DNA of 63,215 nucleotides, counting the filler, from Folioceros fuciformis (lineage: Eukaryota): the NCBI GenBank assembly GCA_049999805.1. It is 10 parts of 10 records of this genome, joined end to end, with 100 filler letters (N's around TTAATTAATTAA, not from the genome) between each part and the next. Parts side by side here need not be neighbours in the genome. Positions count along the whole stretch, not along the records: positions 30,147 to 41,134 come from JBNGIO010003438.1; 9 more parts are not named here. One strand, 5' to 3'. Below the pieces are notes generated by a model. The model did not search any database, had not been told where the DNA came from, and saw nothing but the letters and a program-made list of their open reading frames with translations. The position numbers and the translations under genes are program-made. This document shows positions 30,147-43,600 of this stretch, piece by piece; positions within the stretch are counted from its first letter, which is position 1, and each line of letters begins with the position of its first letter.

Positions 30147-30430
30147 AATTCCTGTTGCTTGTTCTACTTGAGGGTAGTTTTGAGGTGTGTCATCCACCAT
30201 GTGTTGTCCCCATTGATTAATTCTTGTAGCTTGTTCTACTTCAGTGTAGTTTTTAGGTCTGTCATACACCACATCTTGTCCCCATTGTTGAATTCCCGAA
30301 GCTTGTTCTACTTGAGGGCACTTTTGAGGTGTGTCATACACCATGTCTTTTCCCCATTGTTGAATTCCCGAAGCTTGTTCTACTTGAGGGAAACTTTGAG
30401 GTATGTCATACACCATATCTTGTCCCCATC
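30147..30430 (-). repeat. 72-bp frame-preserving tandem repeat (~4 copies; 24-aa unit QWGQDMVYDTPQNYPQVEQASGIQ)
   Basis: Minus-strand ORF 30512 to the gap translates into four diverged 24-aa repeats without stops. Confidence 0.85.
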
Positions 30431-30542
30431 TACACATCAATTGTGTTAGAGATTGAGCACGATTGACATTCTTTATCGGCAGTTGGTCTAGCCTTGTAGA
30501 CACCATCTCCATTTTCTCCTCTGTCTCACAAATAGCGTTCTT

Positions 30543-30695
30543 TATCTCAAGTGGACTCCTTTGAGCTAGAAAAGCATACTTCCACTTGTNNNNNNNNNNT
30601 ATCTCAAGTGGACTCCTTTGAGCTAGAAAAGCATACTTCCACTTGTATATCCCAAGTGGACTCCTTTGAGCTAGAAAAGCATACTTTCACGTGTA
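30543..30695. repeat. ~48-bp tandem repeat, 3 copies spanning a small N gap
   Basis: TATCTCAAGTGGACTCCTTTGAGCTAGAAAAGCATACTTCCACTTGT repeated; the copy flanking the gap may be assembly overlap. Confidence 0.8.
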
Positions 30696-31686
30696 TTTCA
30701 CATTATTAATTCTTGTCTGGGTCTCACTATTGGAGTCTTGCAACAAAAGGAAAATAGACAAACAATGTACCTTAAGACACACACACCAAACTATGGTTGA
30801 AGAGCAAACAATATAAAGTAACAATGTTGCGATGCATGACTATTATCCATTGTATGTGCAATGCCAAATTGATTGTCATTATATAAATAAATAAATATAA
30901 AAAATATAAAAATAGAATGAGATTACTTGCTCAAGGTCTTGTTTCGTTTCTAGATGATGGATTGCACGAATACCCCATAGTCTAATCTCTTCTTCTTTTG
31001 TTGTTCGTTGGAAACCGATTTGTATCGGTGAAGAACATGTTCCTCACTCCAGTGTCCCCAAAATATATTAAGGTTATTTTTATTCTTGTTAGTTTGAACA
31101 CCGATACCCTAAAGTTGGACACCGGTACCACACATAACACCCCGTGATGTGGCGTTGTTGCTCATTCATGATAGGCTGGATAATGATCATACATAACATT
31201 GTATCATTGATTTCAGTTTCGACATTCCCTGTCTGGGTTTTGAGATTGGTTCAACATTGTCTGTCCCGATTGCATTATACCTTAACACTTAAGCCATGGA
31301 TGGCAATGAAGCCATGGTCTGAAAGATGAACATAGAGCTATAGGCGCCTGGCCATTGGACAACGTCTGCTAATTTTCTATCACAACGTTCCAAGACGGGT
31401 GCCATACACACGTGACGCGAGTCTGGGACGATTCCTAGCTTCCCTACAACCTGATTCTGATTAGCCTTCCCACGTAACCTTGGTCTGTCGACATCAAAAT
31501 TTACTCGTATCTTTCTCCATCATCCTGCGTTCTTCAACTCTTCCCTGAACTTACGACTCTTCTTGCGAGAAATGACGACTGTACTGAGATTCATTTCCTT
31601 CAGCAGGTCGTGAAGAAGAGAAGAGTGAAGAGCAGCCGCCCATGGTGCCCAAGTGTGATGGGTGCTAGCATGCCTTCTGTCCCATG

Positions 31687-33031
31687 CTATGCTGGAGGTT
31701 CTTCAAGTTGTACTCCCAGGTCACGTAGCTGCATCTCAATGACGTCTTCCCAGTTTTTGTTGGCTTTGGGGTTGGCTGGGCTAGGATGCATAATCTGCCC
31801 GACCTTCACCTGTACTACATCCTGCACACAGCAGCGTTCTATCTGCTGCCTGGCATAGCCGCCTACACCCACCACAAGCCTGGGTTGGAGCAACTGGATG
31901 ACCTGAGCCAGCGAGTGCCTGCATCGTGCTTCCAACTCTTCCCGCTCGCACAGTCTGATCTTGTCGGGTGTCCGGTTCCTGCAGTGTCTCTCACCAGGAA
32001 TGAAACCAGCTTCTCTATAGGGGACGTCGAATGTAAGGTGCATTCCATCATATTTACTCACTTCCCAGAGGCTTCCATGAATGCCAGAGGACAGAAGTTG
32101 TACACCCAGAAGCGAGTGAAGAACGAAGCAGCCGAGATAAAACGCCTCTGCGCCCATCCCCAGAGCCTCTGGCCGCTCACCTGCCGCCACCCAAAGTGCT
32201 ACTTCAATGCATGGCGGAGGAAATGGTGACGGTAGTCAGACTCGCATTGTTGTTCCCTCCCACTTACCTCACGCCTGTAACAGGTCAAGCCATCGATCGG
32301 TCTCTTGGGATGGATAACCTCTGGCTGATCCACTCTGCCGCTTATTCCCAGAAACTGGCGTACAACGAGGCTGTCTCCGAATGGTATCCCCGTCTGTAAG
32401 TAATGTCAACAGTGGGGTGAGTCATCCAGGTTTCTACAACGCTCCTCTACTTGCGTCAGTCCCAGCCATTGCAGGACCAGCAGCACTTTACCTGAGCCAT
32501 GCCGAAAGGGCCGGGGTTCATGCCCACGAGGAGGACTTCAACTCTCTTTCCTCCTGCACGATGAACATGGATGCCCCGATCATCAAGTCTCAGGCCCTCG
32601 TAATCAGCAGCAGGTAACAAGACAACGATGCAGGAATGAGGGAGTGCCAACACACCATGCTTCCTCACATACTGCACATACGGTTCCCTTGCGTACACCA
32701 GCGGATTGTATCTGGATGACATCCATCACAAAGGCAGCCGTGCTGTGAGGCAAGCAAATCCCGCATCTCCAACAAGATGCCATGGCTTGATTTGCCTTAC
32801 TTACACGCAAGTGACGGGAGCTTGGAAAGTGAGGGTGGAGAGGGATTCCACCAGTGCATCGGAGATGCCCACCAACTTCTCACAAGCCTCCTCTCGGGAC
32901 CAGCCCAGCCGCTGTTCCGGTGGCAGCTCCTGCTGCTCCACTGATGACTCTGCCTCGGCATCAAGCTGGTGGGCCTGTGCCTGCTGGGAGGGCCCAATCC
33001 GACGGCGCTTGCGTTGGGGATCGCCATCCAT
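31687..33031 (-). CDS. SMUG1: Single-strand-selective monofunctional uracil-DNA glycosylase (UDG family 3, SMUG1); 6 exons
   Basis: Spliced protein: MDGDPQRKRRR...VYNPLVYAREPY...LLVGMNPGPFGMAQTGIPFG...HPKRPIDGLTC..REVSGQRLWGW...YNFCPLAFMEASGKNRTPDK...PRLVVGVG...IMHPSPANP..NKNW. Exons 33031-32805, 32711-32656, 32553-32492, 32393-32268, 32180-32062, 31978-31687, all GT-AG and in frame. Confidence 0.93.
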
Positions 33032-33109
33032 GGTCTGTCTTGCCGCGGCTGCCCTAAGAGTGACCGTGGGAGGGATGCAAGGCAGTTGCACCTGCTGTTG
33101 CTTCCAGGC

Positions 33110-34816
33110 ATGGCCCAATTCAGGCCGCGTTCGCGCGCATGGGGTCCCCTGCTGGTGCTGCTGCTGGCTCTTGCAGTTGCTCTGTTTGCGGATCGCGCGG
33201 GAGCAGCTCGGGATCAGCCGGTAGTGCCCACCTTCGCGCGGGCTGCAGGTAATGGGTCCTGCCCGTATCGCTCGAGGGTGCGCTGCCGATGCAAATGCCC
33301 TGTCGTGCCGGCTCTCAAGGGCGATGATGCGTGCAGATTGGCTGTCTCTGGACAACATAGCTAAGGCGCTGCGCAGCGCTGCCTCCCTCCCTCGACAGTC
33401 GCAGAAAGTGATTCTCGCGGGCCTGGGAGAGGCTATCCTCTCGCCCGGCCTGGGAGGAGAGAGACAATGCAATCTGTTCGGAGGATCTGCTGCCTGCGTG
33501 CCCGTGCCAGCTGGATCCGACTATTCAAGATTGTGCGCCTCGTCGAGAAAGCTGGTGGATTGCGCGTTCCGGCTGGAAGCCGAGGAGCATGTATCCAAGG
33601 ACCCAGATTCGTTGCTCAGAGACAGAGCTGCAAAGGAAGGTAGGCAGTAGGGATGGATCTGCTAGCTTGCTGACTAGGACAGGGCAAGGAATTGCAGCGG
33701 GTCTTATCTTTGCTCGTGCCTGGGCGTGGACAGGATACACACCTTGCCCTGAATGCTATGAATTGCTACACAAATTCTGGTGCGCGCAGACTGTGCCTGC
33801 CTGTGGCACATTCGACAAGGTGGTGGATGAGATTTTGGTAGGCTGTCTGGACTACACTCTTTCCGGACTGAACCAACATGTGACGGTTTGTGTGCAACGT
33901 TCATCTTTTCTTGGGACTTGTTCGTGCATGTGCAGCCTTTGATCTCCTCGGTGGTGCTGGGAAAGGAACCCGTGGGTGTGGCTTTGGAACAAGCTGTTCC
34001 TGACATGCTGCAGGCCATAAGTCTGGGACTTCCTTGCAAGAAAATGTGTAACTCCATCACCACGACCTGCGGTTGTGGCCAGCCAGCTACTTTTGGAGAG
34101 GTCGGTGTCTGCCCTTGTCTGCTGCTCGGTAGCTTTACTCGTTGCTGGTACTGGTGAAACATTGAATTTTTGCTTGGATGAGGATACAGGTTATGACAGC
34201 TCTTCAGCAGAATAGTGATGGCTACAACACAAGCATGTCGTCAGCCACTTCTAAGGATATATTTGCCAAAGTGTGGGACAAGCCTGTATGCGACTTATTT
34301 GCAGAGGACACCATCCCTGGGTTTGAAGGGGTCTGCGAGGTGCCGGCTCAACAATTCACTTGTGCGTGGTGCAAAGGGAAATCCAGGCCCCAGGGAGTGC
34401 ATGAGCAAATTGTTGCACAACTCGCTCAGACTTTCTCTGGGATGATGCAGGTAAAGTAACAGGGAACTGCTCTTTTCTGTTCTTCAAGGTTCTTCAAGCT
34501 TTTCTGGACTTGTCATCTTCATTTGTATGAGCATCCTCCGTTCCTTGGTCCTCAGGGTGGACTCGAGAAGATTCTTATTGAAGCTGGTGGCAAAAACAAA
34601 GCAGGAGACAAAAGTTGGAGCTGGGCGCAGCAGCAAGCTCCTCCTGAATCCAAGAAACGCAATGGCGGCCATACAGTGGCCGTGGTATTGATCACTTTCG
34701 TGGTGCTGACAGCAGCTGGCGCCGTCTTTGTCGCCTTGAGAATTCATCGCACACGACAGATTCCCTCCCAGTATATTGATTTGAACAGCATGGGATACAC
34801 TCCTCCGATCTTGTGA
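33110..34816 (+). CDS. Uncharacterised single-pass type I membrane protein with a cysteine-rich (Frizzled-CRD-like) ectodomain; 6 exons
   Basis: Signal peptide MAQFRPRSRAWGPLLVLLLALAVALFA; Cys-rich ectodomain; TM VAVVLITFVVLTAAGAVFVAL; short tail RIHRTRQIPSQYIDLNSMGYTPPIL. Frame-consistent GT-AG exons 33110-33248, 33337-33639, 33734-33837, 33936-34100, 34190-34450, 34556-34816. Confidence 0.82.
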
Positions 34817-35129
34817 CCAGCAAGGTGCAATGGGTGACCAAGTGGTTTCAAATTTATATGCTCGTGAGTTACATTTCCTGATTTACTCACAGTGTGGCTG
34901 CAAACTAGACAACTGCAGGACAGCTCTTGTGTACAAATGTACCACCATGACACAGCGCAAAAGATGTATATACAGACATTCCGAAAGTGGCATCGGACGT
35001 TCTACAGACCAGCCGTCCTTTGTCAGTCAGGACGCATGTGCGATATATCTATCACATGTCCTGCAGTAAAACATTATTTCTGTGAATTGTCAACTTCGCT
35101 CTCCCTGTGGACATGCTATCTTCCGGTGA

Positions 35130-36861
35130 TTATAACCATGGCTGTTCCTCCATCCAAGGATTGGGATCTACTGCTTCACCGTTCACAAACAAACCCCTGG
35201 CAACAGCGTATGGGTTAGTGGCCAATTTACATAGGTTGCAACAAGCATCCGCCAGAACATTGTTGGTTACCAGTGGAGATGGGGACCAGTTGCCAGGCCA
35301 CTCTGGCCGACACGACCAATGCCTTGTCCTGCCTGCACCACCATCCCTTTCCTGCACACACGCACAGCTCCAGGAGCTTTAGAAGCCGCTTTAGACACCA
35401 GAAAATGCATAAAACACGCGGTGACGGAACAAAACAGCGTCTTACTGCACAGAGACGGAGGAAAGATGCATGAGCATGCTAATGACTCCTTGGCCGTGGT
35501 CCAGTCCGACGCAGTTACCGTGCAGTTCAAATCCATCTTCCTCCCTGCCAACAAGGGCGACAACGCCAGTGGCTGGAGCTGTGACAGGAGTTCCCTCGTC
35601 AGCTCCGTAGTCCACACCACGATGGTAGTAGCTGCACATGCATCCAAAAGAATTCAAGAGATCGTTAATATTCCCAACCCCAGAACAAAATCTGTCACCT
35701 TTGCTCAGAAGTTCAAGTAGTACCCTTCCGCGAAAACACCGTTGTAGAAACGTTGGAGACCATATGCAGCAGTCACTTCCCCTGCAGCTGGCAGCTGGAA
35801 TGGACCATTCCAGTACTGCTCCTGGGACTTGCTAGATAGGAGAGCCTTCACAGCTTCTCTTTCAACCGCAGTTCCTGTGATAGAGAAGGAGGGCCATGGT
35901 TTGGCATATGGTGAAGAGAGCACAACTCCTGAAGCACTCAGACTAGAGTGTAGCGGAGGGAGCACCTTACCTTGAATTCCCGACTTTGGCTCACTTAACC
36001 AAATAGACTCCACAGGGTAATCCTTGAAACGGATCTCCACAAAGCCGTTGTACATCTCGTGCCTTCCATCTCTGATGTCCACCTACCAAAAAGAAGCTCT
36101 CTGGATCACACATGAGTTCCTGTTTGCCATCATGTGGAAGGCAAGCACAGTGGTCCCAAAACAGAACGATTCACACATACTGGTAAATGGACGAAGGCTC
36201 ACAGTAAGTGGTCGCATGCCAGGATCATTGAGGGGAGTAGTGGGGACAAGTGCTCTCCAAAGGCCGGTGTCCGCTGGGTAAGCGCACACTTCTGATCCTC
36301 CATAGGTTATCTGAACTAGAGGCTCCTTGGGCAAATACTGCCTACGGAGGATGGCTGGCTCGTCAGGAACCTTGCACTTTTTCTATCGCTTTCCACATAC
36401 AGGGCAACAGGAACACAGTGAAAGCACCGTGCCTACCTGATGGCAGCACTAAGCCAGTCCAGGAACCCCCGTGGAGGCGGCACGGACACCAGAATTGCCA
36501 AAGTTTCACCCTGGAAAGGCCTCCACGATGACAGACTCGGCTTCACCCGCTGTCTGCGTCGTCCAAACAAATCCTTAAGCTGCTCCCCTCTCTGAGAGAT
36601 AAGACCGAAATTGTGGGCTCTTGCTCCATCTTGTGCAGGTTGTTTCAGGACCTTGAAGACTGATTCCAGTCCTTGAGCCAATTGTCGCCTCCAGGCATTG
36701 GAGCTCCAAACGCGCTCCAGCTCGAGGCCGGCGAGAGGCAAATGCTGTAGCGTTGCAGGGACACCGCGAGCAGCGGCTGCTAACAGACTGAGAGGGGAGA
36801 GGTCTTGGCAGGGCCATGCGGGTTCCTGGCGCCTGCGTATGTCCTCCAGGCGAGGAGGCAT
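35130..36861 (-). CDS. M23-family (LytM/MepM-like) Zn metallopeptidase of cyanobacterial type with a long N-terminal extension; 7 exons
   Basis: QGETLAILV, WRALVPTTPL..PG, YWNGPFQLP, YGLQRFYNGVFAEGYYHRGVDYG (HxxxD), [54 protein letters not shown] (HxH). Exons 36861-36437, 36341-36203, 36082-35971, 35874-35724, 35631-35446, 35351-35271, 35196-35130. Start codon choice is tentative. Confidence 0.9.
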
Positions 36862-36942
36862 TGCTGATGTAGCGAATAGAACCAAAGACGTTCCAAAGTC
36901 TTCTATCTTCCTAACGCGCACCACGCCGCTAGAAGAAGGGTG

Positions 36943-38430
36943 ATGGCAGTACGAGCCCTGCAGCTGCTGCCCGTGCTGTTCGCGGTTCCTGGGAGACGGC
37001 CATGGGTGTCAGTGGGTGCCCGTGTATTACCTTTGCCTTCCCAAGACAGGCACCGGCAATCGCCGCACCACTTTGGGCTGCACCACAGACGAGCAAGCTC
37101 AATGACAGAGGCGGATGTGGGACTGGATTCCTCTGCTCCTGGAATACCAGTGTCGACGGAGGAAGGGACTTGGGCGACTGGGAACAGTCTTCGCAGACAT
37201 CAGCATCTCTGCCTCTACTTCACCCAAGGCCTGTGTACGCTTGTAAGATGTCTATCGCTCGCTACCAGGTATGTGCTTGCTCCTTCCTTCCCTTCCTCTG
37301 ACCTGTGCTCACATTGTGTTATGGGGTTTCTTGGGCAGGCAGACGATGGCGAACATGTTGCAAAATTCACACACTTGTATCCAGATCTTCCTGTGAAGCC
37401 TTCATACTTGGAGAAGCTGTGTCCACAGCCGTTCGACTACTTTCTGGTGCTGGATCTGGAGGGCCGGGTGGAAATTCTTGAATTTCCTGTGGTGCTGCTG
37501 GATGCTCAGACTTTGGCGGTAGTCGACCGCTTTCACAGGTAGTCAGTACTGTACTCCTGGAGAACTGCCTTGCCACTGTGGACAAGGACTGGCTCTCACA
37601 TCGTATGCTGCTCTAGTGCAGGTTCGTGAGGCCCGTGAAAATGTCCGAACAGAGAATCACAGAGTACATTGAGGGGAAGTATGGACGCTGGGGTCTTGAC
37701 AGGTGAGAAGACCAAAGGTCGGGCTTTTGTTTTGCTCACATTCTTCCCTTCAGCGTGTGTGCTGGCGTGAATAGCTAACCTTCCTGAGCTTGCTCCTTTT
37801 CCAGGGTTTGGCATGATACAGCTGTGCCCTTTACCCAGGTAATCGAGAACTTTGAAGAGTGGCTGAAAAGCCATGGTCTGTGGAATCCAACCAAACGCGG
37901 GAAGATGAGACGTGCAGCATTTGTCACCTGGTGAGCGGCATACATACCAGCCGTGTAAGAAAATTACGTTTCCTATGTCCGCAAGGTTTGTTGTTGATCT
38001 CGAACTGCATGCTGCTACATCTGGGCACCAGCGGGAACTGGGATGTGAAGACGAAGATTCCCGAACAGTGTGTGTCGTCCGAAATCACAGTTCCTCCGTA
38101 CTTTCACGAGTGGATCAACCTCAAAGATATCTACCTGAACTTCTATAATCAGAGGGTACGCAGTTCGCTTTACCTGCTGCTCTGGTGTGTTTTGAAGAGG
38201 CTAGTGTACCTGATGTTGGCAACCTGCAGGCAGGAGGGATGTTGGCAATGCTCAAGGGCTTGAAAATGCATGTACAAGGCAGCCATCATCTGGGACTAGA
38301 TGATGCCCATAATATCGCTCGTGTGCTACAACGTGTTCTCGCAGATGGAGCGGTGGTGAAGATCACTGCTAAACGAAGTGCCACTGACCCGAAAGATGTA
38401 AAATTCACATTCAGAAACCGGGTGAAGTGA
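36943..38430 (+). CDS. ERI1-like DEDDh 3'-5' exoribonuclease (At3g15140/ERL1-type) with N-terminal targeting-like sequence; 6 exons
   Basis: LCLYFTQGLCT, DYFLVLDLEGRVEILEFPV, FVRPVKM, VWHDTA, AFVTCGNWDVKTKIPEQC, EWINLKDIYLNFY, GSHHLGLDDAHNIARVL. Approximate exons: 36943-37242, 37339-37538, 37622-37702, 37805-37929, 38032-38155, 38230-38430. Confidence 0.92.
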
Positions 38431-39421
38431 CAGTCACCTTTGGTTGGTGACTCTAAAGGTTCAGCTTGTGGGTTGTCGCACCTGCTCCGAAATCTGTTTG
38501 GGTTGGAGTTGACAGTCACCCAGGAGCTGGGCTCTGAGTTTGACGCTAAGACGCTACCTTCCAGCTGCAGCTACTGCAGTTCAAGTCTCTGCTGCTACCC
38601 CTTGCATGTTGGTGTCCCTAATGCTGCCGCAAGAGGGTGCCCACCACGGGTAGGATTCTGCAGTTACGGCGTCCCACGTGCTTCGGGGACGAGTGCAACA
38701 TGCAGATCCGAACAACAGGTGTGTAATGGGCTGTACATGGGCAGCTTTGCCTTCCGGCAGATGTGGACCCGTGAGTTACCCACTGGTGGTGTGGCCTGCA
38801 GGCATCCAGCCAGGGAGGTGGTCAAGGACGCTCTACAATATTTGATTCTTCTGTGGGAGCGTGTGGCAACCAGTGTCACCAAGGCGGTACATGAATACAG
38901 AGCCACTGGAGAAATGAGGAATGTTAAGTTGGAGAAATGAGGAATGTTAAGTTGGAATTCTGGTGTTTGGATGTGGTCATCTACCAGCCTCCATCTAGAT
39001 GTGTGAGACCAAAAGGAAGTACTGTTTGGTTGGTTGCTTAGAGTTGGAAGGGATATGTAAGCTTAGTGGGCTAGGTTTAAGTTGGACTTGTTCTAGATAG
39101 AGGAAGAGATGGGAAGTGGGGTGGGCTGGAAGAATTTCAGAAGATAATGCGCACTTCTAGAGCCCGGAAGACAATTAGTCACAAAGATTCGAAGCAAGGA
39201 GGAGGGATGAAGAAGTGGAGGTGGGTTGACTAGACTTGAGCTTGAATGGAAATGCTGAATGACATTGATGTTATATGATGTCGCTTAATTGAAAGACCTA
39301 CATCCTTAAGTTCAAATGGCAAGGAATTTGTGTCATATTGGTTTATATCTAGATTGGTTAATCAAACTTATTCTTTAAGACAAAAATTTGAATTTGGTGA
39401 AATACATCCTCAATTTTGGGC

Positions 39422-39476
39422 GAGAGAGTATGGAACACCGGAGAGAGTATGGAACACCGGAGAGAGTATGGAACAC
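39422..39476. repeat. 19-bp tandem repeat, ~3 copies
   Basis: GAGAGAGTATGGAACACCG repeated. Confidence 0.85.
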
Positions 39477-39644
39477 TTTTGTTTTGCACCCATATATTTT
39501 TATGCAAATATTCTGCTGCATCTTCCACATATACAGATTTTAGGGCTCCTCGTCACGTTACAAGCTGTCATACAATACGGAGTTTATTTTCTGTTATCAT
39601 TGCCACTTCAGTGGATTAATCAAGCGCAACGAAGAATCTTCTCC

Positions 39645-39875
39645 GGTCCATAACTTTGTTTCTTCTCCATTCACAACCTTTTTTGTTCCATAACTTTGTT
39701 TCTCCTCCATTCACAATCTTTGCTGGTCCATAACTTTGTTTCTCCTCCATTCACAATCTTTGCTGGTCCATAACTTTGTTTCTCCTCCATTCACAATCTT
39801 TGCTGGTCCATAACTTTGTTTCTTCTCCATTCACAATCTTTTCTGGTCCATACTGTTCTTTCTTCTCCATGCACA
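39645..39875. repeat. 40-bp tandem minisatellite, ~5-6 copies
   Basis: GGTCCATAACTTTGTTTCTCCTCCATTCACAATCTTTGCT unit. Confidence 0.92.
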
Positions 39876-40269
39876 AGCTTCGTCATGTATTTTTTCTACC
39901 CACATCATGCCTTGGACTGCCATTCTTCCACACTTCACCCTTCAGCTCAACGAGCGGAGAGTGACACCTACATCCTATGCCCGGGTATTCTTTCCATCTT
40001 TGTAAAGATGGACAATTTAGGTTGAGGGTGCACATGAGGATCCTAAGGTAGATACAAGGCACGTACCTTGCACAAAGGATGCATTCTTTTCAATCTCAGA
40101 CTTAGGGCCACAGTCCAGGAATGGGTATGCAAGGTTGCTTGTGCCAATGATAGAGGCTGCGTTGGCTTAAATAACATATGTGCTTGGTTCAGTGGTCCTC
40201 AGGGTTCCATGGGTTCCTCCAAGTACGATGAATCTACCAAAACGGGCATTCAGTTGCCCACCATTAAGC

Positions 40270-40620
40270 TCCTTTCATTCATTCTTTGTGATCAGGTTGA
40301 ATAGGGGCATAGGAATTGCAATGGCTGCAACCCCACATCGTACTGCACAGACAACCATGCTAGCTTTCCTCCTAAGTCTGCAAGAAGCCCATGCAATTGC
40401 TTGCATTTTCAGCTCACATTCCATGTTGGTGGACCTGAACTTCACTGCAATGTCATTCGTGGCCACAGCCCACTGAGTATGCACATTTTTCAATCCCCAC
40501 CCTTTGCACTTGCAAGCAAACGTTCTCTTACCGTTATTGCACCCTTCTTGGGTGTCACGGGGTACCTGCACAATAACTACCTCTCACACACTCTATGGAT
40601 TTCATCAATTGAACCCCATT
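40270..40620 (-). mobile_element. Possible degenerate SWIM zinc-finger (Mutator-like transposase) remnant
   Basis: RTFACKCKGWGLKNVHTQWAV resembles a damaged CxC..(C)xH SWIM motif; lies in repeat-rich, gene-free sequence. No DDE core seen. Confidence 0.3.
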
Positions 40621-43600
40621 TTTGTGAGGGATTTGGATGCGCAAACCAAAGGTACACATACATTTCATTCATTTCCAAGGTTACATGACCATAAGTTCTA
40701 GTGTAGGGATACAATCGCCCGAAATTTTTAAGTTCAAGCTAAAAGTTTTTGTTTTTTTTATTAAAACCTTTAGTGAATACTCACCATGAAAGATGAGTAA
40801 ATATCACGTCCCAAAGTAATAGAAGATAAATTTTTTTAATTGATTAATTTATCTATTTATATAAGTTCAAATATACTTTGTGTTGTTCATTGTTGAAGTA
40901 GAATATTTTTAATTTTTTTTAAAAATTCTTATCACTTCATTTAAAATATTTTCCAACCGATAGAATTCAAAAATTGCGCAAAAATTGAAACTAACAAGTA
41001 TTATTGCATTATGCCTTTGAATTAGAGATACTAAAAGTTTATGATTTGCTTAAAAGGCAAGGCTAAAGGAGGAAGACAATTTTTCTAGAAGGAGTCCAGA
41101 GATAGATTGGGAGAGAAAAAAAATTTGGGGATCANNNNNNNNNNNNNNNNNNNNNNNNNNNNNNNNNNNNNNNNNNNNTTAATTAATTAANNNNNNNNNN
41201 NNNNNNNNNNNNNNNNNNNNNNNNNNNNNNNNNNCCATTCCCAACATAGGAATCATACCGAAAAAACGGCGCAACCGTTATCCTAACTCCTGGACACCAC
41301 ACACGAGCGGACAATTCATGACGGCAATACAGAACCCTAGGGCCATGGCAGACAGGTCGTTCCCGACCAAGACCACCCTGATGCCATCTTTTGAAGCTAC
41401 TTAAGCACACCCTCCATCCCGTCAGCGGCCGGACTGTTTCCTTTCACCTTCCTAAACACAGCGCAGCGAAGAGCAGCGCAGCGCAGCACGCCAGGTACAG
41501 CAGCAGTGCACAAAACGGCTTACTTCTCGTGCTCTGCGGCAGCACTGGAGGGGCGGATCACTCCCAGATGCGGCGACGAAGCCGTCGAAGGTGAGAACTG
41601 GAGATAACGCCCCGCCATGGAACAGTTGTAACCGTGTTGTCGGCGAATGCTGCCTCCCAACCCTTTCCGACTGATAGACGCAGAAAGTGCGGTATCTGAA
41701 TTTCCTTGTTGTGGAACTGTCCCCCCGGCTAGCCCCGTCTCCTCATCAGGACGCAGCCAACCTGAGCCTCCACTTCCCTCTTCCCGCCCTCCAACTGGCA
41801 AACCTAAGCTATCGCCAGTCCATCAAATTTGTAAGCCGTTATTCTTTACACAACTTCTGGTAAATCTCGTTCCAGTGCAGCCACACAGCTGCGCTCGCCC
41901 ACATCGATGCGCTTTTCACCACACCGCGTGTAAACTCAGGTAACTTTGTTTCATCTCCGTAGCTCCTGTAGTGGGAATCAGGATGGGGTGCACAAACGGA
42001 TCAGCGTTGTCCTGTANNNNNNNNNNNNNNNNNNNNNNNNNNNNNNNNNNNNNNNNNNNNNNNNNNNNNNNNNNNNNNNNNNNNNNNNNNNNNNNNNNNN
42101 NNNNNNNNNNNNNNNNGTTGTCCTGTACGGAACTTCTTCCAGCGGACCTGTCACCTGCCTGCCACGGTGGGCTCCATTGGAAAATGAATAAAGTTTTCGA
42201 TTACCTACCAAAAGAAAATAATATTTTACAGTCGGAACTACGAACTGTATGTACATACATACACATACATACATACTGGTGTTCTTGATTATTCCCTTAC
42301 CACGCTGCCGGCCCATCGTGCGACAAGGCTGGCTCACTGGACGACGCAGGTACGCCGTGAGCAGGGCTGGCTTTCTGGAGGACGCAGGTACGCAGTGAGC
42401 GAATGGCAGTACTGCGAGAAACGGGAAGAAAAAACGCGCAAACAGACGACAGGCTGGCTGGTGGCGGAAGAGGAGGGAAAAAGGTGTTGGCAGACAGGAA
42501 GCTTGTGGCGGAGTCTGCTTAGCAGAAGGCAAGGAAGGATCGCAAGGAAAAGCTGAAGCAGGTTATGGAGACGGGCCAGGGTTTTGGCTTCGTTCTCCAC
42601 ATTCGGCGTTCAGTGTTTGCGCGAGTTTCTGGAGCCTCGTTAGGTCACCAGAGTAGTGCCGACGGTGTCGTGAGGCAAAGCTTTGCTGAGTTGTTCATCA
42701 TGTCCGTTAAGCACTTCCGATCTCAATCACCGCAGTTTAGTACACCTTTTAGTGTTCTTCCTGGTCGAGGACTCCCGTGCTGTTATCGAAAACAATGTCT
42801 CCCCTCCCGCTCTCGGCGATCCCTAACAGGTTGGATAGGAAGGCTGGTGGAAAGGGTGCGGAGTGTTGATCATCGGATGCTTCGTAAGGACGAGAGTGCC
42901 TTGCAAGGACCGGCAAGGGAGTCGTGTGTGGTTCACTGCAAACTCAGAGCATGTGCCGGAAAACCTTGATGACGTGAAATCTACGTCATCGGAGGACTGG
43001 TGAACCGAACAAGTTGCTTCACTGGTTGGTGCGTGACTCTGATTTGTGTCTGATTTGAGCTAGTCGACTTGGCATGGCTGTGAGTGGTTGTACCTGCTGT
43101 AGGTGGAAGGTTGCTGCGTGGGACAAGGCCAGGAAGCGGCCAATTGCTAAGCCGAGAAGATGAGTTGACGTTGCTCGGCTCTGAGGTGCGGTCAGGTCAG
43201 GACGTGTCTTTGTTTTGTGTCGTCTGCGTCGCATTTTACAGCGCGGGGGGGAACGGCAATCTCAGAGCAGTGCGCCAGCCCTCCCTGTCGTCTCGATTCT
43301 CAAGCAGGTGTGGCCGGCAAACCAGGTTGGCACTTTCAGCACAAAGATGGAAGCATGCACTTGACAAGGTTATGGGATCTGCTGTCATCCCCGTGAGTCA
43401 GGGGATCTGTCATGATCCCTGCCAGATAAACTAGTACGAGGGGACGCACCTGATGCACGAGCTTGAGGCCTGGAAAATGAACACATATGGCTCGATGGCA
43501 AGGAAAGCAGGGAGTGGTTTCAAGGCAAGCGACGTATACGGAGATGGGGATTGGAGTAAATACAGAGTGCTGTAGCGAGTGACATGGAATGGGCATGGGC

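Follow-up and report, generated by a model that had tools for sequence, protein, structure and literature searches.

A single-copy SMUG1 uracil-DNA glycosylase gene in the hornwort Folioceros fuciformis: probable vertical descent within streptophytes and a two-sided deeper origin

Is an intact, bacterial-looking SMUG1 gene in a hornwort the trace of a bacterial transfer, or an ordinary plant gene that flowering plants no longer have? In this study, we analyzed such a gene in a window of 63,215 nucleotides (the whole stretch of DNA from Folioceros fuciformis, GCA_049999805.1), made up of several separate contigs, with N runs carrying a 12-base stop linker at the joins. Distant genes in the window are therefore not neighbors, and the true genomic context of the SMUG1 gene is positions 30147-41134 only. 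Our results suggest that it is very probably a single-copy streptophyte SMUG1 ortholog, with vertical descent reaching back at least to the ancestor shared by Chlorokybus and land plants; the hornwort, mosses, ferns and conifers would have kept it and angiosperms lost it, and it is predicted to be a nuclear base-excision glycosylase that backs up UNG.

The gene consisted of six minus-strand exons (33031-31687; Table 1) with an 882-base open frame for a protein of 293 aa. All five introns (93, 102, 98, 87 and 83 bases for introns 1 to 5) had GT..AG borders, and contigs of run X1 skipped exactly these bases and showed no other letters. Translation of the gene model showed that an early stop appears if intron 1, 3, 4 or 5 is kept. 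Intron 2 is in frame and stop-free; it was rejected as coding sequence because it is spliced in run X1 and missing from orthologs. A protein search with the last exon found 1 match in the 87-Mb genome, and an intron-split family-1 UNG was present on another contig of the same genome. The Pfam UDG profile gave no candidate in this genome although the SMUG1 gene is there, indicating that such a search is blind to split genes.

Table 1. Positions in the window of the parts of the Folioceros SMUG1 gene and of its flanks
Feature	Positions	Strand	Content or evidence
Exon 1	32805..33031	-	aa 1-75: RKRRR run, acidic low-conservation tail, first fold helix
Exon 2	32656..32711	-	YNPL motif
Exon 3	32492..32553	-	Motif 1 GMNPGPFGMAQ with N107, G109, G112
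Exon 4	32268..32393	-	TGIPFG with F120; HPKRP loop
Exon 5	32062..32180	-	SGQRLWGW; NFCP with N185
Intron 5	31979..32061	-	83 bases; spliced form seen, unspliced form suggested by depth
Exon 6	31687..31978	-	NRTPDK; motif 2 and wedge HPSPANPKANK with H261, A265; stop
Transcribed 3' region	31246..31686	-	Contigs cover ~440 bases beyond the stop; true end not visible in contigs
Gap between the ATGs of SMUG1 and the head-to-head gene	33032..33109	.	78 bases; one unbroken contig

The evidence of expression came from run X1 of one study, whose status as RNA is a guess; no run was recorded as RNA. Across SMUG1 and two neighboring genes, 14 GT..AG introns were skipped exactly in this run, which makes cDNA the plain reading of X1. 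Thus, the intact six-exon gene described in the sequence-only reading stood, as did the splice junctions that it had named as a check: its 293-aa frame had five GT..AG introns, and five of five junctions were seen in this one probable RNA run. Runs X2 and X3, from other organisms, gave no cover. The 5' ends of SMUG1 and the head-to-head gene appear to overlap. Over introns 1-4, binned X1 depth was fully accounted for by the listed contig records; over intron 5, depth arithmetic pointed to an unspliced contig of depth 25-27, beside 27.9 for the spliced form, and we infer that approximately 50% of SMUG1 transcripts retain this intron. Retention puts a protein stop at aa 197, upstream of the catalytic H261, and three moss-cluster proteins share this endpoint: P0123 and P0126, both Sphagnum models, and P0285 from a Physcomitrium cluster. 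It may reflect regulated splicing or slow processing of the last intron. These observations, together with the fact that angiosperms manage without SMUG1, could be read as signs of a gene that is intact yet mostly non-productive or repurposed (e.g., for RNA quality control), its output being limited by intron 5 retention. We consider this quite improbable: every catalytic residue was kept in moss, fern, conifer and algal orthologs, the spliced form was as deep as the unspliced one, and last-intron retention can mean incomplete processing.

The last exon matched Geobacter, Xenopus and human SMUG1 chains among solved structures (E 4e-17 to 2e-15), and only SMUG1 chains were matched at E<1e-14; its Pfam UDG match (E 9e-5) was just under the cut-off. 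The motifs, with GMNPGP from aa 105 and HPSPANP from aa 261, were colinear with those of human SMUG1 at an offset of +22, so that N107, G109, G112, F120, N185 and H261 correspond to human N85, G87, G90, F98, N163 and H239 (human numbering of catalytic residues and mutant data reported in PMC1919486 and PMC12699328; F98 position in PMC6749576). Motif 1 of family 3 contained the catalytic Asn (N107), a Gly (G109) where UNG has a thymine-blocking Tyr, and G112. Both the substrate-binding Asn (N185) and the motif-2 His (H261) of family 3 were present, and the wedge HPSP(R/A)NPxANK, reported as SMUG1-specific (PMC1919486), occurred as HPSPANPKANK at aa 261-271. The family-1 (UNG) motifs GQDPY and HPSPL were absent from this protein. 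A265 stands at the position of human R243, where bacteria are reported to carry Ala and where the human R243A mutant retains 94% activity (PMC1919486). A structure model of the Cryptomeria ortholog, used in place of the Folioceros protein (pLDDT 89.9), fitted Geobacter, Xenopus and human SMUG1 with rmsd 0.8-1.1, and matched SMUG1 at E<=4e-26 vs 5e-10 for SMUG2. Judged by its sequence, the gene is a family-3 SMUG1, not SMUG2, family 1, family 4 or UdgX. The basic run RKRRR (aa 7-11) was echoed in moss and conifer orthologs; it is a putative nuclear localization signal and suggests a nuclear location. This agreed with the sequence-only reading, which had described family-3 motifs (here with catalytic residues intact) and a basic stretch near the start; that this is a family-3 SMUG1 in a plant also carrying UNG now rests on residues, structure matches and the separate UNG locus.

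The best matches of the Folioceros protein were moss, fern and conifer proteins (57-65% identity). Named orthologs were found in Cryptomeria, Taxus, several Sphagnum, Ceratodon, Physcomitrium (two clusters), Adiantum (two), Klebsormidium and Chlorokybus, and two EukProt models with SM0000 ids are taken by us to be Spirogloea. Streptophyte SMUG1s formed one clade, both in a FastTree of 214 rows (19/19 rows, support 99) and in the mixture-model tree described below (10/10 rows, 96/97). Folioceros lay inside land plants (100/96) and outside the moss, fern and conifer subclades. AU tests (43 rows, 242 columns, short constrained searches under LG) gave borderline values: removing the Folioceros protein from the streptophytes was nearly rejected (p 0.104 and 0.0501), as was removing it from the land plants (p 0.137 and 0.0508). 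In addition, breaks lie after GMAQ and before ISGQ in conifer isoforms, and before VSGQ and at SGK in moss models; these breakpoints fall at Folioceros introns 3, 4 and 5, which indirectly suggests shared introns. Descent within streptophytes is thus well supported. That the gene came recently from bacteria into this lineage alone, or that it contaminates the assembly, is extremely improbable, although the bacterial-type motifs and the fact that an outside position was nearly rejected, not rejected, might favor it. Both readings were rejected on the five spliced introns, the agreement of intron positions with moss and conifer models, and the plant matches and land-plant clade described above; moreover, two neighboring plant-type genes in 30147-41134 were spliced in the same run, so bacterial contamination does not account for SMUG1.

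No angiosperm, liverwort, lycophyte or chlorophyte was named among the best 120 of 7954 matches. Because most rows were nameless and only 8000 candidates were scored, this absence supports, but does not prove, loss. As the sequence-only reading had stated for Arabidopsis, this species and flowering plants are reported to lack SMUG1 (PMC6728418 and PMC10573277). Its idea of a relict lost in seed plants is wrong: Cryptomeria and Taxus keep the gene, and the loss lies in angiosperms rather than in all seed plants. SMUG1 has apparently been lost in angiosperms.

We then considered what the bacterial look of the protein means. The states SGQRLWGW and RTPDK, noted as bacterial-like in the sequence-only reading, were indeed common in bacteria: LWGW after SGxR occurred in 56 of 80 GTDB proteins and 13 of 19 streptophyte rows, and RTPDK in 51/80 and 15/19, respectively, and LWGW was none of the listed top states in the 46 animal-clade rows. 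The bacteria compared had been chosen with a plant-led alignment, which had at least 595 matches, of which the best 80 were taken. Atlas clusters for a moss ortholog were bacterial-majority UDG clusters only. The Folioceros protein was 48.0% identical to 31 bacteria vs 39.6% to 11 animal-clade rows. To the same bacteria, streptophytes had a mean identity of 48.4%, the red clade one of 47.1% and animals one of 42.2%, and identity between these eukaryote groups was lower (39-43%): animals were at 42.2% to bacteria vs 39.4% to plants, and red algae at 47.1% vs 43.2%. Since animals and red algae, too, were nearer to bacteria than to plants, identity here reflects slow bacterial rates and the selection of bacteria. 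A likeness common to every eukaryote group does not show transfer, and the trees neither show nor exclude it; the bacterial transfer proposed from the motifs therefore does not follow from them. Beyond plants, SMUG1 was found in Gracilaria, Rhodelphis, Bigelowiella, newt, wasp and unnamed eukaryote-like clades. Absence from other eukaryotes near the recipient, which a transfer from bacteria to plants would predict, was thus not observed: Gracilaria, Rhodelphis, Bigelowiella and animals have the gene.

Deep trees left the source of the streptophyte gene two-sided. In the FastTree, streptophytes lay separate from the animal-like clade, amid named bacteria and without a supported sister. An IQ-TREE mixture-model tree of 70 rows (10 streptophyte, 5 red, 2 other named, 5 unnamed eukaryote-like, 11 animal, 31 named bacterial and 6 unnamed; names stood on 2 of the 11 'animal' and 1 of the 5 'red algal' rows, the rest being labeled by placement) put all eukaryote groups on one side, with one unnamed row (P0330) inside. 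The split had support of 94/89, which is below the tool's star level with the bootstrap unsettled, and occurred in 92% of 200 bootstrap trees. It was also seen in a quick mixture tree (89) and with 30 of the other 49 bacteria (83), and the eukaryote grouping vanished without animals and unnamed rows. In the AU tests, all six deep topologies stood, with p-AU values of 0.22-0.68 under LG and 0.16-0.82 under the mixture model; eukaryote monophyly was unrejected (0.56 and 0.39), and Archaeplastida, split in the best trees, were unrejected as one group (0.22 and 0.16). The tested tree that came out best under LG joined both streptophytes and red algae to the main set of bacteria. No tree supported a bacterial sister group of streptophyte SMUG1. 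The sequence-only reading had held that angiosperm orthologs, or a vertical placement with other eukaryotic SMUG1s, would remove its case for transfer: on the former it stood, with no angiosperm named in the best 120 of 7954 matches; on the latter, the eukaryote grouping (94/89) and the unrejected deep topologies neither show nor exclude transfer.

Two accounts of the streptophyte ancestor's SMUG1 carry most of the weight. The gene may have passed from a bacterium to the streptophyte ancestor separately from the animal and red-algal copies, gaining introns and the basic N-terminal tail later; this is the idea of the sequence-only reading and of a 2023 review (PMC10573277), moved back to the algal stem, and we would give it close to an even chance. 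The FastTree position among named bacteria, the higher identity to bacteria than to the animal clade, the loss of a single eukaryote side once animals and unnamed rows were left out, the best LG tree, and the fact that no chlorophyte or fungus was named among the matches listed (best 109-120) are consistent with it; the lack of a supported bacterial sister, the fact that animals and red algae, too, lie nearer to these bacteria than to plants, and the split of eukaryotes from the 31 named bacteria (and, at 83, from 30 others) argue against it. Alternatively, SMUG1 may have entered eukaryotes once, early, followed by many losses (fungi, chlorophytes, angiosperms and others), with plants keeping ancestral residues and animals diverging. 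The occurrence of SMUG1 in Gracilaria, Rhodelphis, Bigelowiella and unnamed eukaryote-like clades, the one eukaryote side recovered in quick, careful and replicate mixture trees, and the unrejected monophyly of eukaryotes point this way. However, that support was below the star level with an unsettled bootstrap, the longer eukaryote branches may attract each other, the probably bacterial row P0330 sat inside the eukaryote side, the best trees split Archaeplastida (whose grouping was nevertheless unrejected), the grouping failed without animals, the many losses have to be assumed, and no intron common to plants and animals was shown. We regard such inheritance from an earlier eukaryote as a substantial possibility, though it does not reach an even chance, and transfer between eukaryotes as unlikely. 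A bolder combination is doubtful: SMUG1 not as an animal enzyme that plants borrowed separately from bacteria, but as an ancestral eukaryotic glycosylase that persists in red algae, Rhodelphis and chlorarachniophytes as well as in streptophyte algae and plants without flowers, lost repeatedly and lastly in angiosperms, its level in bryophytes being set by a conserved, stop-bearing retention of intron 5.

How much of this was already in print? Section 3.1 of PMC10573277 describes bacterial-like SMUG1 homologs from mosses, ferns and horsetails as well as gymnosperms, with a possible transfer. The presence and bacterial look of plant SMUG1 are therefore already known, and the novelty claimed from sequence did not hold, the transfer idea itself being in that text. 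These plant SMUG1s belong to the same orthologous group, and share the same bacterial-like sequence, as that of Folioceros, which is a real, expressed and ordinary member of the reported group. Neither hornworts nor algae are named in the review, which presents no tree, whereas the clade found here reaches Klebsormidium and Chlorokybus. A 2019 review (PMC6728418) states that family 3 is not represented in plants. In Supplementary Table 32 of PMC7027989, Anthoceros angustus AANG006026 is annotated with PF03167 and K10800 (SMUG1) and has a transcript hit, and one SMUG1 stands beside one UNG; as in Folioceros, a hornwort thus has both, known there as a table row and by annotation. No published phylogeny or assay of a plant SMUG1 was found in the literature searched, in which subscription journals were mostly missing. 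The UDG phylogenomics of Lucas-Lledo (2011) may already cover the distribution of SMUG1. What is added here is the algal depth of the clade, an origin of streptophyte SMUG1 left two-sided, and the likely retention of intron 5 in ~50% of transcripts. The gain lies in a caution against taking the suggested bacterial transfer as established and in a broader range of eukaryotes with SMUG1.

Comparison with characterized enzymes suggests how the protein may work. Its best solved match, Geobacter metallireducens SMUG1 (PDB 5h93 and 5h9i), shares the Ala at the base-flipping position and the TPDK motif; it differs in having no introns or basic N-terminal tail and a wedge with ASP where Folioceros has ANP. 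In such bacteria SMUG1 is reported as the only UDG (PMC1919486), whereas Folioceros also has UNG. Vertebrate SMUG1 (human 9ggs, Xenopus 1oe4) shares N85, G87, N163, H239 and the NPxANK wedge, and coexists with UNG; in contrast, it carries Arg243 where Folioceros has Ala, and belongs to a separate clade, with ~40% identity between the Folioceros and animal-clade proteins. By homology to human and Geobacter SMUG1, the Folioceros enzyme would be a nuclear monofunctional base-excision glycosylase. The wedge HPSPANPKANK would be pushed into duplex DNA and the damaged base flipped into a pocket kept open by G109, with N107 positioning a water molecule and H261 stabilizing the leaving base. Because the pocket is open at G109, it should admit C5-oxidized uracils; the predicted substrates are uracil and UNG-refractory oxidized pyrimidines (5-hydroxymethyl-, 5-formyl- and 5-hydroxyuracil), possibly also xanthine. 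The AP site left would start base-excision repair, and the enzyme may back up UNG at U:G with a wider substrate range. Sugar-beet UNG is reported not to cut 5-hydroxymethyluracil (PMC12428235). Plant base-excision repair is known almost wholly from Arabidopsis. Mosses and hornworts can be edited, and UNG and SMUG1 could therefore be studied together in them, outside animals, a route to asking how angiosperms cope with 5-hydroxymethyluracil without SMUG1.

Several further observations concern the neighborhood of the gene. Head to head with SMUG1, with ATGs 78 bases apart, lies a six-exon gene for a 410-aa membrane protein (33110-34816, +) with a signal-peptide-like start, a Cys-rich middle and a C-terminal membrane stretch. 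Five of its five introns were spliced in run X1; the pieces of it tried against Pfam gave nothing beyond noise, and no Atlas match exceeded 0.85. An upstream in-frame ATG (33358-33032, -) would add 109 aa to SMUG1. Depth also suggests an unspliced contig (~17) over intron 1 of the 410-aa gene, which would mean retention or a longer SMUG1 5' end. An extension ahead of the basic run was also seen in several moss and red-algal orthologs, a hint that it might give SMUG1 dual targeting. Tail to tail with the 410-aa gene, and covered with it by one contig, is a spliced peptidase M23 gene (~35000-36100, -; Pfam E 6.5e-13). A gene at ~36940-38430 (+) has a DEDD-type exonuclease-like start with a DLEG motif and no Pfam match for the pieces tried; it is presumably ERI1-like. 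At 30147-30500 (-), an open frame of degenerate ~25-aa repeats, without a Pfam match, adjoins a short tandem DNA repeat near 30540-30700.

Among the SMUG1 proteins collected, the Chlorokybus model P0167 had an N-terminal DUF167 (PF02594) joined to SMUG1 and may be a merged model, and P0205, probably bacterial, carried a GIY-YIG nuclease domain (PF01541) ahead of SMUG1. Elsewhere in the assembly, a STAR extension was seen in 0 of the 4 RbcS loci read, rbcL was not found, and none of 20 pattern matches for viral contigs was confirmed. Finally, an intron-split LCIB gene was observed at L086-L088 (G000:C1919); LCIB is described as hornwort-specific among land plants (PMC8075897), and LCIB/C as also present in other non-angiosperms (PMC7027989).
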